Positions 4,738-35,500 of a DNA stretch of 39,092 nt are shown one piece after another. The first letter of the stretch is position 1, and each line of letters starts with the position of its first letter. Made by a program: the position numbers and the translations under genes. The notes under the pieces were generated by a model. The model did no database searches. It saw nothing but the letters and a program-made list of their open reading frames with translations, and was not told the DNA's origin. The stretch is from the sequence record PZ452614.1. The stretch is one strand, 5' to 3'. Origin of the DNA: a phage.

Positions 4738-4814
4738 TTACCGTTGAGGTAATAATTATGCGTATCTGGTTTGATGTCAATAGATATGAGTTAAAAAAAT
4801 TACCCGTTAGGTAA
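4738..4814 (-). promoter_or_regulatory. Leftward early promoter (PL-like) with two flanking TTACC-N5-GGTAA operators
   Basis: Minus-strand -35 TTGACA (4780..4775), 16-bp spacer, -10 TAATTA (4758..4753); operators at 4738..4752 and 4800..4814. Confidence 0.55.
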
Positions 4815-4871: not shown

Positions 4872-5456
4872 TTATTGTTTGTTTTTTTCGTTCTGGTTGA
4901 TGACAAATTCAATGTAACTTTCGATCTTTGCCTTCTCTGTTTCAGGTAACAATGCGTAGCGCGAGCGGTCATAGTTGATAGTCGCGGGGTCGTGCGGGTG
5001 AATCAGTAATTCATATCCGTGACGCCCAAATGCGGATGCAACATTCTCCAGGGTGGAAATGGAAACGCTGACCTCATTGTTTAACAGGCGGCTGATTGTT
5101 ACCTGGGCGACGCCGGATGCGCGGTGAAGTTTTCCCTGCGTTGAAAGGTCGCGGCTTTCGCTCATCCAGCGTTCCAGGTTGTGAGCCGCCAGTTGACCAA
5201 TGTCGCTTGGTCCGACAGGCTGAAAACCTTCCTGAGAAAGCGAGCGATCGATATCAAGCCAGTTACGGGGTTTATTGGCGGCAGCTTCAATTTTTCGCGC
5301 AACCTGGTCGCCGATAACCTTCTTGCCAAGAGCCCAGCGGTTTACCAGATTTGCCTGAGTTCCAAGTTTTTCTGCCATCCGCGTCTGAACACCATTGAAT
5401 TCACGGTCGATCAAGTCGTTGAGATTTTGCCTGCGGACGTCCTGGATACTTTTCAT
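4872..5456 (-). CDS. CI-like phage repressor with two HTH regions and no S24 peptidase domain
   Basis: 194 aa; HTH-like segments near residues 25-45 and 115-135; divergent from a Cro-like gene; located between the leftward and rightward operator clusters. Confidence 0.75.
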   Translation of the reverse strand: MKSIQDVRRQNLNDLIDREFNGVQTRMAEKLGTQANLVNRWALGKKVIGDQVARKIEAAANKPRNWLDIDRSLSQEGFQPVGPSDIGQLAAHNLERWMSESRDLSTQGKLHRASGVAQVTISRLLNNEVSVSISTLENVASAFGRHGYELLIHPHDPATINYDRSRYALLPETEKAKIESYIEFVINQNEKNKQ

Positions 5457-31381: not shown

Positions 31382-31406
31382 AGGCCGCTTTCGCGGCCTT
31401 GTTTTT
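31382..31406 (+). terminator. Rho-independent terminator ending the structural operon
   Basis: Stem aggccgc/gcggcct with loop tttc, then TGTTTTT. Confidence 0.65.
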
Positions 31407-31522
31407 AACGAATGCCGCCTCCGCCCGTCAGAAGAACCCTGCCTTGTCGTTGATGTACTCCGCGTGCGTCTGGATATCACGCAGGCATTTGCTCACACCG
31501 ACGATGTAGCAGAACATGGTGG

Positions 31523-32107
31523 TCAGCTCCGCCGCCGCGCCTGATACATCATGCCCGTCGTCCTGTTCATCAGCAGTGAGTGCTCCGTCAGGCCGAGAAC
31601 ACCAGACGGCGAATGAATCAGGCTACGGTAGCCGGGCTTCAGTGGGGCACTGTAGGTTTTGTTCTCTATCTTCATCGCCTGCATTACTGCTGACGCCGTG
31701 GCGTTGGCTACCTGGTCGGCAACCATCTTTATGCGTTCTTCCTGCGGGAGCGAGTTTTTAATGTAACTTCCGGTGCGGCGGATCTGAGGAAGAACCTCAC
31801 CTGTAACCCATTTACGAAAGCGGTAGGGGATAGTGCCTGGTGTCACCGCATCGCGGCAGCGGAGGATCAGTGTGTAGAGTCCTGACTCGGAGATGATGAT
31901 CGATTCTTGCTCACCGCCAGGGGTGTCGGTTGAAGCGACACCCTTCTCATCATCATCAAGTTTTCGAACAGCATCTCGATGGTTTGCTATGCCTATAGCC
32001 CGACAAACATCTGAAGCGATAAACCATGGCTCACCATTAATGACGATTACCCGTATATCGGCTTGGGATTCGAAAGAAAAAATGGACGTGCTTTTTGTAG
32101 CTGTCAT
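31523..32107 (-). CDS. Antirepressor with Bro-N domain
   Basis: …FSFESQADIRVIVINGEPWFIASDVCRAIGIANHRDAVRKLDDDEKGV… matches the Bro-N pattern; Shine-Dalgarno AAGGTAA. Confidence 0.8.
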   Translation of the reverse strand: MTATKSTSIFSFESQADIRVIVINGEPWFIASDVCRAIGIANHRDAVRKLDDDEKGVASTDTPGGEQESIIISESGLYTLILRCRDAVTPGTIPYRFRKWVTGEVLPQIRRTGSYIKNSLPQEERIKMVADQVANATASAVMQAMKIENKTYSAPLKPGYRSLIHSPSGVLGLTEHSLLMNRTTGMMYQARRRS

Positions 32108-32263
32108 AGTGGTTACCTTTTAGTCTGGTTAATCACCACTACCTACGCCAATCGGTTGGTGGTGAACTGTGCAGGGTTGGCGTAACCGGCTAAAAGGACC
32201 CGGCGCACCTTTCGGTGCCCCCACACAGCCCACCATAATACGAATGTGACCGTGCTATACGCA

Positions 32264-32284
32264 TAAAAAAACCGCTTGCGCGGT
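32264..32284 (-). terminator. Terminator-like hairpin inside the antirepressor operon spacer
   Basis: Stem accgc/gcggt with loop ttgc, followed on the minus strand by a 7-nt U-run. Confidence 0.45.
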
Positions 32285-32360
32285 GAATGCGCCTTTTAGT
32301 AACCCGGGACGCCAATCCCGGCACTGGATTTTGCCAGTGCCCGATTACTATGGCACAATA

Positions 32361-32401
32361 GGAGTGCTTATATTTACCTTTGCGGTAAATATAAGCACTC
32401 C
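32361..32401. repeat. 41-bp perfect palindrome (18-bp arms, 5-nt centre) with a TTACC-N5-GGTAA core
   Basis: GGAGTGCTTATATTTACC TTTGC GGTAAATATAAGCACTCC read directly. Confidence 0.9.
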
Positions 32402-32419
32402 ACTTGGTAATTGCAAACC

Positions 32420-32677
32420 TTATCTGGTTTGTTTTCGTAATTGTTCGGCACAATAGTCGAGATGTGTTTGCAGATCCCGCATGGACATCTGTGAGCTGGT
32501 GACGTAGTTAATCAGTGCAGTCAGTTCGGCAAGTGGGCCATCGACATTAAATCCATCCTTATCGAGATCCCGGAGTAATTTCATCAAGTGCGATCCCTCC
32601 ACCAGTGACCTGACGCCTCCCGGCGTGTGAATCCTTTCGGTAAATCCGTCTTCCAGTGGATAGTGATACTGCGGCAT
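32420..32677 (-). CDS. Hypothetical protein (85 aa), first gene of the LexA-box-controlled operon
   Basis: ATG at 32677 after GGAGAAG; LexA-like box 22 to 37 nt upstream. Confidence 0.55.
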   Translation of the reverse strand: MPQYHYPLEDGFTERIHTPGGVRSLVEGSHLMKLLRDLDKDGFNVDGPLAELTALINYVTSSQMSMRDLQTHLDYCAEQLRKQTR

Positions 32678-32696
32678 CTTATCTTCTCCATGCAAT

Positions 32697-32716
32697 AACT
32701 GTATAAATACACAGTA
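32697..32716. promoter_or_regulatory. Candidate LexA (SOS) box
   Basis: aaCTGTataaatacACAGta: CTGT-N8-ACAG, 17/20 match to the consensus TACTGTATATATATACAGTA. Confidence 0.7.
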
Positions 32717-32753
32717 GCAAATAATTTGTTTGCTATCCAGCACGTTTTGCGAA

Positions 32754-32820
32754 TCACCTGAAAGGTAATATCTGTTCGTATTTATGTGTTATCTATCCAT
32801 ATGTGGTTTTTCAGGTAATA
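32754..32820. promoter_or_regulatory. Divergent regulatory region: operator-like site and ATGTGGTT / GGTAATA motif before the tailspike
   Basis: TCACC-TGAAA-GGTAA 32754..32768; ATGTGGTT 32801..32808; GGTAATA 32814..32820. Confidence 0.5.
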
Positions 32821-32872
32821 GAATAACCGGATATGCGGCGCAACGGGTGCTGCGACTATCTGGAGATTTAAC

Positions 32873-35500
32873 ATGACGGTCTCAACCGAAGTTAACCACA
32901 ACGAATACACCGGTAACGGTGTTACGACATCATTTCCGTATACCTTTAGGGTTTTCAAGGAATCTGATCTGGTAGTACAGGTTGTTGACCTGAACGATAA
33001 CATCACTGTTCTGACGCTGGATACTGACTACACAGTAACCGGCGCAGGGGGATATGAAGGTGGTAATGTAATACTTGCAACAGCTCTGGCTAATGGTTAC
33101 CAGATTTCCATATCACGTGAACTGTCGGTTACGCAGGAAACAGATCTCCGTAACCAGGGGAAGTTCTTTGCTGAGGTGCATGAGGATGCGTTTGATAAGC
33201 TGACAATGTTGATTCAGCAGGTTCGTAGTTGGTTTAGTCTGGCGCTACGTAAGCCGTCATTTGTTGCTAACTATTACGACGCAATGGACAACTATATTCG
33301 TAACCTTCGTGACCCTGTAAGACCGCAGGATGCGGCTACAAAAAAATATGTTGATGGGGTCGCAGAAACAAACCTGAGCAGAACGCTACGAACCCCTGAG
33401 CCGATACCAGCATTGCCGGGAATTGAGCAACGTAAGAATAAGATTGTTGCAATGGATGATACTGGAAATCCGATAATGGTTTTGCCTGAATCTGGTTCGG
33501 CTACTGATGTAATGATCCAGTTAGCGGCAAATGATGGATTTAAGTTTATTGGTCAGTGCCCTGATATATTGACACTAAGAACAATAGAACCTGAAAAAAA
33601 TGGTCAAAGGATCACGTTGCGACAGCATACGATCGGAACTGGGCTTGGTGGAGGGGTATTCAGAGCTGTACTTGATGGAACTGGCTATACCGATGATGAT
33701 GGTGTTGTAATAAAAACAGCAGGTGGTTCTGTATGGTTACGGGTTAATGCAGATAAGGTTAATCCGTTTATGTTTGGGGCCACTGGCGTGGCTGATGATA
33801 CAGCAGCACTGCAAAAGATGCTTGAATGTGGCAGGGCGGCTGAGCTTGGCACAAATGTCTGGAAAGCATCTAATCTTGAGCTAAATAACAAGTCGTGTTC
33901 ACTATCTGGGTCTGGTCTACACGTTTCCAGGATAGAGCAAATATCTGGGGCAACAGGCGCGTTACTGACAATTACTCAGGATTGCAGCCTGATTTATTTG
34001 TCCGATTGTGGCCTGTATGGGGATGGAATAACTGCGGGAACAAGCGGGGTAACGATGGAGACAGGAAACCCAGGTGGGGCACCAAGCTATCCATTCAATA
34101 CCGCCCCTGACGTTCGTAGGGATCTTTACATTAGCAATGTTCACATTACAGGATTTGACGAGTTAGGATTTGATTATCCTGAAACGAATTTTTCCGTCTC
34201 AACGCATGGATTATTCATAAGAAACATTAAAAAAACCGGGGCTAAGATCGGAACTACCGATTTTACATGGACAAACCTTCAAATTGATACGTGTGGGCAG
34301 GAATGCTTAGTGCTTGATGGTGCTGGTAATTGCAGAATTATAGGTGCCAAATTAATTTGGGCTGGTTCAGAAAATGAAACACCATATTCAGGATTACGTA
34401 TTTCTAATTCACAAAATGTAAACATGACAGGAGTTGAGTTACAGGACTGTGCATACGATGGATTGTATATTAAAAATTCAACTGTTGCTATCAGTGGGTT
34501 GAATACTAACAGAAATAGTGCATCATCAAATCTGTCATACCATAATATGGTTTTTGAAAACAGTATAGTAACTGTAGATGGTTATGTTTGCCGTAACTAT
34601 GCTGCTACATCGCTATATGATCTAAATTCACAAGCCGGAAATGTGAGGTGTATTGGTTCCGATAGTACCGTATTGATAAATGGTATTTACGAGTCAGAAG
34701 TAAACAGCGAACGACTCATGGGTGACAATAATCTTATTCAGCCATATTCTGGTGATTTAATAATAAATGGCCTAAAAAACTATTATACATATACAGGAAG
34801 CGTAAAAAACAATATTCCTACATTTGACGGAGTCGTTACAACCGCAACATATGTAAGCGCTCCTTCGATACTAGGGCAAGGAAACATGCTTAAGTTAACG
34901 CAATCAAACAAGGATAAGTTATTATTTTCTGATAAAGTATCGAGACATGGGTGTACAATCGGCCTTGTTCTAATCCCGTCATTTACGGGTGCAACAACTA
35001 TGACAGCTTTCACTCTGGGGAGTGGATATTCGCCCTCTGGAAACTCTGCTGTTATGCAATTTATAGTTAACTCCAGTGGTGTGCAGACTATAGCAATATT
35101 ATTATCCGGTGATGGTATAACTCAAACGTTAACAAGCGATCTGACAACGGAGCAAGCGTTAGCTTCAGGAGGCGTATATCATTTTGCGATGGGATTCGCT
35201 CCAGGCCGATTATGGTGGTCTATTATTGATATAAATACCGGAAGGCGTATACGACGGGCGTACAGACAACCAGATCTTCACGCCGCATTTAATAGCATAT
35301 TCAACAGCGGAACATCTTCTATCACCGCATTTTCAGGACCATTAGCAGGTGATATTGCATGTGAAGGGGCAGGTTCGCATGTTTATGTTGGCGGTTTCTC
35401 ATCTGAGTCAGACTACGCAGCGAGCAGAATGTACGGATTATTTACCCCAGTAGACCTGGATAAACAATACTCATTCCGCACGCTGAACGGAAATATTTAA
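32873..35500 (+). CDS. Tailspike protein
   Basis: 875 aa; conserved-looking N-terminal domain, then repetitive Gly/Asn/Ser-rich beta-helix-like C-terminal part with lower GC. Confidence 0.8.
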   Translation: MTVSTEVNHNEYTGNGVTTSFPYTFRVFKESDLVVQVVDLNDNITVLTLDTDYTVTGAGGYEGGNVILATALANGYQISISRELSVTQETDLRNQGKFFAEVHEDAFDKLTMLIQQVRSWFSLALRKPSFVANYYDAMDNYIRNLRDPVRPQDAATKKYVDGVAETNLSRTLRTPEPIPALPGIEQRKNKIVAMDDTGNPIMVLPESGSATDVMIQLAANDGFKFIGQCPDILTLRTIEPEKNGQRITLRQHTIGTGLGGGVFRAVLDGTGYTDDDGVVIKTAGGSVWLRVNADKVNPFMFGATGVADDTAALQKMLECGRAAELGTNVWKASNLELNNKSCSLSGSGLHVSRIEQISGATGALLTITQDCSLIYLSDCGLYGDGITAGTSGVTMETGNPGGAPSYPFNTAPDVRRDLYISNVHITGFDELGFDYPETNFSVSTHGLFIRNIKKTGAKIGTTDFTWTNLQIDTCGQECLVLDGAGNCRIIGAKLIWAGSENETPYSGLRISNSQNVNMTGVELQDCAYDGLYIKNSTVAISGLNTNRNSASSNLSYHNMVFENSIVTVDGYVCRNYAATSLYDLNSQAGNVRCIGSDSTVLINGIYESEVNSERLMGDNNLIQPYSGDLIINGLKNYYTYTGSVKNNIPTFDGVVTTATYVSAPSILGQGNMLKLTQSNKDKLLFSDKVSRHGCTIGLVLIPSFTGATTMTAFTLGSGYSPSGNSAVMQFIVNSSGVQTIAILLSGDGITQTLTSDLTTEQALASGGVYHFAMGFAPGRLWWSIIDINTGRRIRRAYRQPDLHAAFNSIFNSGTSSITAFSGPLAGDIACEGAGSHVYVGGFSSESDYAASRMYGLFTPVDLDKQYSFRTLNGNI

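Follow-up and report, generated by a model that had tools for sequence, protein, structure and literature searches.

An unannotated IsrK-C4 RNA module in the leader of the anti-repressor gene of Escherichia phage phiV10

In Escherichia phage phiV10, the spacer that precedes the anti-repressor gene ant holds a known type of phage RNA switch in a copy that had not been annotated; it is real and looks functional, though it is not novel. The window analyzed was a 39,092-nucleotide stretch of phage DNA (PZ452614.1), which is phiV10, and the spacer lies at 32108..32419, read on the minus strand, between the ATG of ant (32107) and the stop codon of an 85-aa gene (32420). On its minus strand we found two curated Rfam families, isrK and C4, in tandem. 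The order on the transcript is a putative repressor operator, a short terminated RNA (IsrK) and an antisense RNA (C4) able to pair with the ribosome-binding site of ant. The spacer is very probably where a P1-type immI module, which keeps the phage anti-repressor silent, has its control region. The analysis itself established membership in the RNA families, covariation of the structures, the complementarities with their co-variation three ways, the arrangement in the genome and homology to the leader of P1. The original prediction, made from the letters alone, had described a structured non-coding regulatory leader of ant with a palindrome, a hairpin and a terminator; all of these features were confirmed at their coordinates and above chance expectation, and the reading as a regulatory leader stands. 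Its comparison with phage P22 does not, its placement of the spacer inside an anti-repressor operon was too simple, and it overlooked the main element, an 86-nt C4 RNA at 32155..32240 that is complementary to parts of IsrK and to the ant ribosome-binding site.

The IsrK-family small RNA (Rfam RF01394) occupies 32265..32340 on the minus strand and matches its model over the full length (model positions 1-77 of 77; 75.9 bits, cut-off 50, E 1.2e-14). It comprises hairpin 1 (32340..32321), hairpin 2 (32320..32305), a single-stranded linker and a terminator (32284..32265). The hairpin with an 8-bp stem predicted earlier at 32320..32341 (arms 32320-27 and 32334-41) is present and corresponds to hairpin 1 of the isrK match, which carries compensatory changes in five of its six pairs among relatives; hairpins 1 and 2 are both 100% paired across the relatives. 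The hairpin and U-run predicted at 32264..32284 form a rho-independent terminator, with a 5-bp stem (ACCGC/GCGGT) and a GCAA loop at 32284..32271 followed by a U-run to 32265, which is already annotated in the phiV10 GenBank record. The suggestion that a small RNA ends at this terminator was well founded, as it marks the 3' end of the isrK family. In Gifsy-1, experiments revealed both a short RNA ending at the terminator and read-through transcripts with the anti-repressor gene; Hfq binding and partial terminator read-through of IsrK are known for Salmonella alone (PMC4825925). The c4-a1b1 model (RF03163) scores just under its cut-off in phiV10 (44.1 bits against 46.7, E 1.1e-9, 32353..32301) and reaches it in P1 and two Stx-type phages.

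The C4 antisense RNA (32155..32240, minus strand; RF01695, clan CL00128) also matches over the full length (model positions 1-87 of 87) with 77.7 bits against a cut-off of 45 (E 1e-13). Its structure, a long closing stem enclosing two hairpins (27 pairs), has a minimum free energy of -45.6 kcal/mol (z -4.7). In the alignment of relatives 99.3% of the cells are paired and 11 pairs are changed on both sides; none of 500 shuffles was as good, and slid controls reached at most 49% paired. The fold and covariation analysis that had been proposed earlier for this spacer shows compensatory changes in C4 as well as in the IsrK hairpins. From the annotated ends of P1 c4 relative to the Rfam match, the mature C4 is predicted to span approximately 32234..32158.

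The same arrangement recurs in related phages. Sixteen related loci were compared, from Uetakevirus relatives, Stx phages, SfV, Salmonella phages and APSE. In every one a Bro-N/Ant gene follows C4 at a distance of about 50 nt, and in 15 of them Rfam isrK lies about 24 nt upstream of C4, SW-37 having a divergent IsrK-like leader with no gathering-level isrK match in Rfam. Bro-N anti-repressors are widespread by tblastn with Ant, a search that did not reach P1. In SfV (orf37) and Salmonella phage 118970_sal3 ('antirepressor'), long proteins have been annotated across IsrK and C4.

Two single-stranded segments of C4 are complementary to two sites within IsrK and to two in the ant leader. The segment names used here follow the P1 record, and all segments are on the minus strand. 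C4 exposes b' CCUUUUAG (32190..32197) in its hairpin-2 loop and a' UACGCCAA (32177..32184) in the single-stranded joining segment. Within IsrK, a1 GAUUGGCGU (32309..32317) lies in the hairpin-2 loop and is complementary to the C4 joining strand, and b1 ACUAAAAGG (32292..32300) lies in the linker and is complementary to the C4 hairpin-2 loop. Downstream, a2 UUGGCGUA (32144..32151) begins 4 nt past the 3' end of C4, and b2 CUAAAAGG (32116..32123) lies over the ant Shine-Dalgarno sequence (AAGG, 8 nt before the AUG at 32107). In phiV10, b' can pair with b2 and with b1, and a' with a2 and with a1, and 8-nt perfect matches to the C4 segments are found at 32116-23, the site of the Shine-Dalgarno sequence, 32144-51, 32292-300 and 32309-17.

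The two C4 segments vary between phages and co-vary with their targets (18 loci including P1; 0 of 10000 permutations). Mean duplex energies of cognate and non-cognate pairs were compared over 16 distinct specificities, again including P1. For the loop they were -12.1 and -6.6 kcal/mol with the ant leader and -11.0 and -5.8 kcal/mol with IsrK; for the joining strand, -9.2 and -6.5 kcal/mol with the leader and -9.3 and -6.1 kcal/mol with IsrK. In each of the four comparisons 0 of 10000 permutations was as good. At least 15 different loop specificities exist among the 18 loci. The a' segment ACGCCAA is common to 9 of the 18, so a' adds little to specificity.

These elements suggest the following mechanism, in which experiments on P1 and Gifsy-1 serve as the model for the operator-binding protein, for how the RNAs are processed and for which way each regulatory effect goes. 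Minus-strand transcription would start from one or two sigma-70 promoters flanking a TTACC-N5-GGTAA operator that is probably occupied by the prophage repressor PhiV10p40. Most transcripts would end at the terminator (32284..32265) and yield an IsrK-type RNA of about 76 nt, and those reading through would contain C4, probably excised as in P1, and then ant. The b' loop and a' joining strand of C4 would pair with b2 and a2 of the ant leader and, as b2 covers the Shine-Dalgarno sequence, are proposed to block translation of ant. IsrK, whose a1 and b1 are the same two target sequences, would compete for C4 in cis or in trans, and this competition is proposed to relieve the block; Ant, a Bro-N protein, would then antagonize the repressor. 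An activating effect of IsrK has been measured in Gifsy-1, where its supply in trans raised anrP translation more than 100-fold (PMC4825925). Excision of C4 from its precursor and repression of ant translation in vivo are expected for phiV10 by analogy, excision with the annotated ends of P1 c4 as the guide.

The authors of the Gifsy-1 study explained their locus differently, by IsrK acting through alternative cis structures and a coupled uORF and not through a trans-acting C4, and over-expression of STnc1160 failed to counteract IsrK there (PMC4825925). A purely cis mechanism of this kind, in which the C4 region is an inhibitory structure with a uORF coupled to ant, IsrK opens the structure and no C4 acts in trans, is in our judgment rather unlikely for phiV10. 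A 35-aa uORF (32129..32236, minus strand), the positional equivalent of Gifsy-1 orf45, does start at a universally conserved AUG inside C4, with its end 21 nt short of the ant start codon; in Gifsy-1, mutagenesis lent support to alternative structures and to coupling through the uORF (PMC4825925); and the 3' strand of C4 could pair with a conserved downstream sequence, GGUGGUGA, in 17 of 17 loci, which would put a2 in a hairpin loop. However, we sought conservation of this uORF in relatives and found none: the ORF in its position has 3, 8, 14, 15, 31, 33 or 64 aa (3 aa in phiv142-3, 15 aa in Tyrion, 8 and 15 aa in APSE phages) or is fused in frame to ant, as in the SfV/sal3 type. Given these varying lengths and the in-frame fusion, coupling through a uORF is not a conserved feature of the module, in contrast to the Gifsy-1 model, in which orf45 translation is coupled to that of anrP. 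Compensatory selection on the C4 fold, moreover, is strong, a direct antisense block predicts just such co-variation between b' and the b2 site at the Shine-Dalgarno sequence, and processing at the position of the mature 5' end of P1 c4 would cut within the uORF AUG.

The earlier statement that the spacer holds no convincing ORF is borne out by the lack of conservation of the 35-aa uORF, the sole ORF in a homologous position. A protein-coding spacer (the 35-aa uORF, an 87-aa TTG ORF or the GenBank misc_feature 'similar to SF0880') was likewise rejected on the RNA-type compensatory changes and the unconserved uORF, the only ORF that was compared across relatives.

Upstream of isrK lies the perfect palindrome (32361..32401; 18-nt arms, 5-nt center), 41 bp long as had been predicted. 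It can be extended to 23-nt arms at 91%. A count of perfect inverted repeats with arms of 11 nt or longer and loops no longer than 10 nt found no other in the 39 kb window, and the longest arm in 100 random Markov-1 windows was 9.1 on average and 14 at most. The perfect 18-bp arms are restricted to the phiV10 lineage. Eight relatives have an imperfect version with a right arm 3 nt longer, an O157 prophage, TT12B, has perfect arms with the center in the opposite orientation, and Tyrion, TL-2011b and EC.W1-9 retain roughly ATTACC-N5-GGTAAAT alone. None of 5426 complete E. coli genomes contains the palindrome region at 99% identity or more. The perfect palindrome is a recent, derived state of the phiV10 lineage and not a conserved design, and its arms look like the product of a template-switch mutation that erased a -35 box retained in eight relatives.

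The conserved part is the core, TTACC-TTTGC-GGTAA (32374..32388, -34 to -48 from the isrK 5' end), which is kept in nine of nine Uetakevirus-type relatives. This operator motif had been noted earlier at the palindrome center, and its distribution lends weight to that reading: with at most one mismatch, TTACC-N5-GGTAA occurs at 14 sites in the window against 0.46 expected, all 14 intergenic and four of them flanking the repressor gene at 4872..5456. A second such site, TCACCTGAAAGGTAA, lies at 32754..32768, between the divergent 85-aa and tailspike genes. On this evidence an operator at the palindrome center is credible, and by analogy it is probably bound by the prophage repressor PhiV10p40. 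It seems very unlikely that the palindrome serves instead as an RNA hairpin (a terminator, an RNase III site or a stabilizer at the 3' end of the 85-aa gene transcript) and not as a DNA operator. Transcribed from the promoter of that gene, whose stop codon it follows by 19 nt, it would be very stable (-31.5 kcal/mol, z = -12.2), but the stem is not G+C-rich, no U-run follows, and 13 further intergenic sites have the core but lack long arms. The lineage-specific nature of the long arms, unconserved in Tyrion, TL-2011b and EC.W1-9, makes such a role doubtful.

The operator-like core lies between two promoter-like sites, and we infer promoter use in the module from these. The upstream site, TTGCAA-17-TATATT (32388..32416, minus strand), came from a consensus scan; its predicted start is inside the palindrome center and its -10 box abuts the operator core, and it also occurs in phiv142-3 and PH444 and can be aligned in Tyrion. 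The presumed isrK promoter, TTTACA-17-CATAGT with a preceding TG, is present in phiv142-3 and PH444 and in eight of nine aligned relatives, ending 6 nt before the IsrK 5' end, so that in phiv142-3 and PH444 tandem promoter-like sites flank the operator core. The consensus scan did not find TTTACA-17-CATAGT in phiV10, where AAATAT (32375..32370) stands in place of the ancestral -35 box TTTACA; what persists there for isrK is the extended -10 box TGcCATAGT (32347..32355, minus strand) and the upstream promoter-like site. The operator and promoter-like sites separate the 85-aa gene from isrK, and ant therefore appears to have its own control region rather than lying simply inside an operon.

Being centered at -41, the operator could activate, not repress, the downstream promoter. 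A dual role, in which the bound repressor occludes the upstream promoter, whose start site the operator core covers, and may stimulate the isrK promoter from -41, and in which the changes of the phiV10 lineage are adaptive retuning rather than neutral damage, strikes us as quite improbable. If it were true, the repressor would sustain the IsrK and C4 immunity RNAs in lysogeny while blocking strong transcription into ant, and four changes would all be adaptive: the apparent template switch that made the palindrome perfect, the flipped center, the 3-bp shift and the lost -35 box.

Downstream of the module, ant (PhiV10p23; 31523..32107, minus strand) encodes a Bro-N anti-repressor (Pfam Bro-N 1.6e-21; PHROG Ant families). 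A 16-bp deletion between 31567 and 31566 shifts its frame, giving 194 aa in phiV10 compared to 231 aa in PH444, ZX5 and TL-2011b. In ZX5, whose repressor is identical to phiV10 ORF40, over-expression of the Bro-N anti-repressor lowers lysogeny (PMC9782041). The upstream neighbor, the 85-aa gene PhiV10p24 (32420..32677, minus strand), is annotated as a hypothetical protein. Its product belongs to phrog_450, a family of Ant C-terminal domains (E 2.4e-47), and has 44% identity (E 1e-15) to residues 152-223 of the 231-aa PH444 Ant; by this similarity the gene is a separate copy of the domain that makes up the C-terminus of full-length Ant. Pfam gave nothing at its curated cut-off, the sole match being DUF724 (17.1 bits against 38.4).

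With the -35 box destroyed by the palindrome mutation and ant frameshifted, the module may be weakened or decaying in phiV10. That it is a decaying remnant, in which the RNAs may persist and the anti-repressor arm is non-functional, we regard as possible but not probable. The truncated Ant and the loss of a -35 box kept in eight of nine relatives point that way, whereas the Bro-N domain and 180 residues of Ant are intact, every RNA element and complementarity is perfect, neither the extended -10 box nor the upstream promoter-like site has been lost, and a separate copy of the lost Ant C-terminal domain (p24) is encoded just upstream.

The closest relatives of the phiV10 module are P1 c4-icd-ant and Gifsy-1 isrK-orf45-anrP, not P22 sar, as the P1 immI leader matches the same three Rfam models in the same order (C4 68.8 bits, c4-a1b1 51 bits and isrK weakly, 35.1 bits, E 8.5e-6). 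The P1 immI record annotates Oc4, two promoters, a1, b1, c4, a2, b2, icd and ant; for P1 and P7 together the layout is an Oc4/Op51 operator, promoters P51a/b, a1-b1, c4, a2-b2, icd and ant1/2. As in phiV10, where the operator and promoters are putative, an operator by tandem promoters is followed by two C4 targets, C4, a second target pair with its distal site at a ribosome-binding site, and the anti-repressor gene. The difference in target specificity between phages is also reminiscent of P1/P7 heteroimmunity (Citron and Schuster 1990, as cited in PMC7313666 and PMC12197685). Unlike P1, phiV10 lacks icd and has 47 nt from C4 to the ant AUG, which places b2 directly on the ant Shine-Dalgarno sequence. 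Its leader forms a complete IsrK ending in a strong terminator, whereas that of P1 is weak and scores under the isrK cut-off; its putative operator is the symmetric TTACC-N5-GGTAA, whereas the P1 record gives an asymmetric 17-bp C1 site; and phiV10 is a P22-like podovirus (Uetakevirus), whereas P1 is a plasmid prophage.

The Gifsy-1 locus, isrK-orf45(STnc1160)-anrP-isrJ, shares with phiV10 the isrK match, a terminator whose read-through, seen in Gifsy-1 (PMC4825925) and predicted for phiV10, would lead into the anti-repressor gene, a stable structured RNA region downstream of IsrK and complementary to its middle, and an AUG some 105 nt from the start of IsrK. In Gifsy-1 the stable downstream RNA is STnc1160 (Hershko-Shalev et al. 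2016, PMC4825925), and both it and IsrK are highly expressed in lysogens (PMC7067206). In contrast to Gifsy-1, the Rfam scan found no isrJ in phiV10, and the phiV10 promoter is predicted to bear a repressor operator. The isrK, C4 and Bro-N tandem was already annotated in the APSE phages of Hamiltonella (PMC7313666, LR794148), including both antisense segments of C4, and the target co-variation holds in the APSE loci too. Those authors did not assign the upstream pair of targets to IsrK, and they named a' and b' in 5'-to-3' order along C4, opposite to the P1 usage. The genes that flank the module are also different. The CI RNA of satellite phage P4, with seqA and seqC, is similar in that it is an antisense RNA released by processing, with copies of its target to either side; according to the Gifsy-1 paper, seqA RNA is a structural homologue of IsrK and P4 CI an analogue of STnc1160, but P4 CI acts by premature transcription termination of replication genes and not by translational control of an anti-repressor (PMC4825925).

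The resemblance to the immI region of P22 (mnt, arc, ant, sar) that had been proposed earlier was rejected, the true homologues being P1 immI (c4) and Gifsy-1 isrK. The two regions do share an anti-repressor beside the tailspike gene and, on the model proposed here, a layered silencing in the lysogen that includes a small RNA, and a promoter-like site on the plus strand (TTGCCA-17-CACAAT, 32331..32359) turned up in the scan. A P22-like system, in which the opposite strand would yield a sar-type antisense RNA across the region upstream of ant, is nevertheless extremely improbable. We found no Rfam sar match at E<=5, the 85-aa protein matched no family of the Arc/Mnt type, the two strong RNA matches lie on the strand of ant, and homology to P1 immI is demonstrated. 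P22 immI has no sequence or structural homology to the phiV10 spacer; sar is transcribed opposite its target as a true cis-antisense RNA, whereas C4 and its target come from one and the same strand.

In summary, the known working principle of the module is unchanged, and the copy in phiV10 itself was unannotated before. The practical value of the finding is better annotation, as the records of phiV10 and several related phages carry no RNA features here. The P1 c4 RNA with its a1/b1 sites, Salmonella IsrK and STnc1160/orf45, which have been kept apart in the literature and in Rfam, are shown to be one module. The loop specificities bear on cross-silencing of anti-repressors among co-resident prophages, including Stx phages.

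The spacer at 32108..32419 separates the 85-aa gene PhiV10p24, an open reading frame at 32677..32420 (minus strand; epsilon15 gp19-like and 'hypothetical' in GenBank), from the anti-repressor gene ant, PhiV10p23 (32107..31523, minus strand; Bro-N by Pfam, 1.6e-21, and PHROG Ant families). An Rfam scan at curated thresholds matched two families over their full length on the strand of ant, isrK (RF01394) at 32340..32265 (75.9 bits, cut-off 50) and the C4 antisense RNA (RF01695) at 32240..32155 (77.7 bits, cut-off 45), both overlooked in the original prediction. With permissive settings, c4-a1b1 (RF03163, 'a1, b1 targets of C4') was matched at 32353..32301 with 44.1 bits, slightly below its cut-off of 46.7. 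The 8-bp hairpin and the terminator proposed from the sequence are present at the positions assigned to them and are hairpin 1 and the terminator of IsrK, the latter having a 5-bp stem, a GCAA loop, and seven U. The suggested likeness to P22 sar was not borne out, as the permissive scan of the region returned no sar-like match.

Escherichia phage phiV10 (Uetakevirus, NC_007804/DQ126339) and the O157 typing phages 9 and 10 match the stretch 31400-32900 at 100% identity. The phiV10 GenBank record has just two features in the spacer, a 'putative rho-independent terminator' and a misc_feature 'similar to SF0880', and no RNA gene. Elsewhere in the window, a tRNA-Arg(UCU) at 14730..14806 (minus strand; Rfam 73.3 bits, also found by ARAGORN) is absent from the same annotation; on the other strand, the hypothetical CDS PhiV10p04 overlaps it with its 3' part.

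The pairing sites of C4 are named here as in P1, where 'a', the first mRNA target, pairs with the C4 joining strand, and 'b', the second target, located at the ribosome-binding site, pairs with the C4 loop; the labels in the APSE GenBank records are reversed relative to this naming. All sites lie on the minus strand. The C4 hairpin-2 loop (b', CCUUUUAG, 32197..32190) is the perfect complement of b2 (CUAAAAGG, 32123..32116), which includes the ant Shine-Dalgarno sequence 8 nt upstream of the start codon (AUG, 32107), and is also complementary to b1 (ACUAAAAGG, 32300..32292) in IsrK's single-stranded linker. The C4 joining strand (a', UACGCCAA, 32184..32177) is complementary to a2 (UUGGCGUA, 32151..32144), which begins 4 nt past the C4 3' end, and to a1 (32317..32309) in the loop of IsrK hairpin 2.

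Sixteen loci sharing the region were compared, from Uetakevirus relatives, Stx1 and Stx2 phages, SfV, Salmonella phages, and the APSE phages of aphid symbionts. C4 is followed by a Bro-N/Ant gene about 50 nt downstream in all 16, and a gathering-level isrK match lies about 24 nt upstream of C4 in 15; in SW-37 there is only a divergent IsrK-like leader. The covariation analysis proposed for related phages supports both folds: the C4 structure is paired at 99.3%, both partners have changed in 11 of its pairs, and it is better than 500 of 500 column shuffles and every slid control, and hairpins 1 and 2 of IsrK are 100% paired, with compensatory changes in five of the six hairpin-1 pairs. The exposed C4 segments vary among phages and the targets vary along with them, giving 16 distinct combinations of loop and joining strand, P1 included. 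In phiv142-3 the loop CCACUUAG faces CUAAGUGG in both targets, in SfV the loop CCUUGAUC is matched by GAUCAAGG, and in YYZ-2008 the joining strand GUGCUAA is matched by UUAGCAC. Mean duplex energies, cognate versus non-cognate, were −12.1 and −6.6 kcal/mol for the C4 loop with the leader, −11.0 and −5.8 for the loop with IsrK, −9.2 and −6.5 for the joining strand with the leader, and −9.3 and −6.1 for the joining strand with IsrK; for each of the four pairings, none of 10000 permutations was as good. These results are direct comparative evidence for pairing of C4 with the ant leader and also with IsrK.

The AUG in the 5' strand of C4 is invariant and in phiV10 opens a 35-aa reading frame whose end lies 21 nt upstream of ant. 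Among relatives the frame from this AUG has 3, 8, 14, 15, 31, 33 or 64 aa, or is fused in frame to ant, and since its length and fusion differ so, coupling of the orf45 type is, judged from these frames, no conserved trait of the module. Assuming the same mature 5' end as is annotated for P1 c4, the processing cut would fall inside this AUG. Long coding sequences are annotated straight over IsrK and C4 in SfV (orf37, 'transcriptional regulator', L009 225..1061), 118970_sal3 ('putative antirepressor', L008 231..1371), PPyecE_EH1910 (L014 531..1190), and one further locus (L017 485..1147), a lineage in which the AUG within C4 is in frame with ant; their annotated starts are probably wrong. PPyecE_EH1910 also carries a further C4 match over the full length (78.8 bits, L014 30..117, plus strand), lying some 470 nt upstream of the isrK-C4 pair, and so has two C4 genes in one locus.

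Two additional structures were noted. Around the IsrK terminator (32257..32292, minus strand), GCGCAU on its upstream side pairs with AUGCGU after the U-run in a helix of 6-7 bp, seen in 16 of 17 loci and co-varying in relatives (GCGACAA/UUGUCGC, GGCGAU/AUCGUC, GGUGCAU/AUGCGCU). Only transcripts that read through the terminator can form this helix, which may thus stabilize them or target them for processing. About 15 nt past C4, the conserved GGUGGUGA (32134..32140) can pair with the 3' strand of the closing stem of C4 (32160..32166, minus strand) in all 17 loci, with co-variation in YYZ-2008. The alternative hairpin would open C4 and put a2 in a loop, and is probably the counterpart of alternative structures A and B of the Salmonella prophage Gifsy-1.

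The predicted palindrome at 32361..32401 is indeed perfect, with 18-nt arms and a 5-nt centre. No other perfect inverted repeat in the window combines arms of 11 nt or more with a loop of 10 nt or less; among 100 random windows, the mean length of the longest arm was 9.1 nt, and none had an arm above 14. The motif at its centre that was proposed as an operator, TTACC-N5-GGTAA, occurs 14 times in the window with at most one mismatch (0.46 expected), as 15-bp sites at 4738, 4800, 5512, 5560, 5897, 7843, 7905, 11964, 11982, 15129, 32374, 32754, 36569, and 38747. Each of the 14 falls in an intergenic region or where a transcription unit begins: two separate the repressor gene (4872..5456, minus strand) from the divergent cro-like gene, two are directly downstream of the repressor gene, and the remaining ones precede transcription units. 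This suggests a dispersed operator network of one regulator, recalling the several operators under C1 control in the P1 record, and it is reasonable to infer that the binding protein is the prophage repressor.

The 15-bp core is kept in nine of nine Uetakevirus-type sequences. To its right, eight relatives have a promoter-like site, GGTAAATTTACA-N17-CATAGT with TG before the −10 box, ending 6 nt before the IsrK 5' end, and to its left is a second, TTGCAA-17-TATATT, whose −10 box adjoins the core; these tandem sites, which we infer to be used as promoters, resemble the two promoters beside Oc4 of P1. In phiV10 the right arm has been swapped for the exact complement of the left arm and is 3 nt shorter than in relatives, the −35 box is lost with this replacement, and the centre has the opposite orientation, GCAAA for TTTGC; a consensus scan detects only the upstream promoter-like site. 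An O157:H7 prophage (strain TT12B) has perfect arms with the ancestral centre, and among 403 E. coli genomes having a match none carries the phiV10 form at 99% identity or more. The simplest reading of these sequences is that a quasi-palindrome template switch, then a flip of the centre, made the phiV10 palindrome, and that the 41 bp represent mutational history, not conserved design. A plus-strand promoter-like sequence within IsrK hairpin 1 (TTGCCA-17-CACAAT with TG, 32331..32359; also in PH444), directed at the palindrome and the 3' end of the 85-aa gene, may be a chance by-product of the conserved hairpin. The left boundary of the module is mosaic: in EC.W1-9 two additional genes (L023 1148..2063) separate the 85-aa gene from the operator, and in TL-2011b the sequence to the left of the operator core is unrelated (L019, upstream of 600). 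From these differences, recombination joints appear to lie at the operator.

Relative to PH444, ZX5, and TL-2011b, phiV10 ant lacks 16 bp between 31567 and 31566, a frameshift that leaves an Ant of 194 aa instead of 231 aa; PhiV10p22 (annotated 29 aa, 31428..31517) is the orphaned C-terminal end. PhiV10p24 is 44% identical to the lost domain over 72 aa (E 1e-15) and phrog_450 hits both proteins, so that by sequence the 85-aa protein is a separately encoded paralogue of the C-terminal domain that full-length Ant carries; it could serve as an Ant modulator or be what is left of a second ant gene. Over-expressed Bro-N anti-repressor lowered lysogeny in ZX5, a close relative with a repressor identical to ORF40 of phiV10 (PMC9782041).

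The P1 record gives the order operator Oc4 (Op51), promoters P2c4 and P1c4 (P51a/b), a1, b1, c4, a2, b2, icd, and ant1/2. Its immI stretch matches C4 (68.8 bits), c4-a1b1 (51 bits), and, below the cut-off, isrK (35.1 bits, E 8.5e-6), the last including a terminator-like hairpin and U-run. Because the Rfam matches are shared and stand in the same order as in phiV10, the spacer is by sequence homologous to the P1 immI leader. Gifsy-1 transcripts from the isrK promoter were reported to end at the terminator, as short IsrK, or to read through into orf45-anrP; short IsrK in trans raised anrP translation more than 100-fold, and a stable RNA downstream of IsrK and complementary to it, STnc1160, was described, the authors likening IsrK to P4 seqA and STnc1160 to P4 CI RNA (PMC4825925). 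Expression of IsrK and of STnc1160 is high in lysogens of Gifsy-1 (PMC7067206). The kind of element is already known: the motifs c4 and c4-a1b1 were described in 2010 (PMC2864571), and isrK and C4 upstream of a Bro-N gene were reported for APSE (PMC7313666). The phiV10 instance is unannotated, and the finding is real, yet ordinary for phages of this class.

The best-supported model, which we consider quite probable, is an immI switch of the P1 type. A repressor-controlled promoter region would produce a leader that mostly terminates as IsrK, and read-through transcripts would give C4 and the ant mRNA. As experiments on P1 and Gifsy-1 indicate for RNA processing and the direction of regulation, C4 would block the ant ribosome-binding site through a2 and b2, and IsrK, with its decoy copies a1 and b1, would relieve this block.
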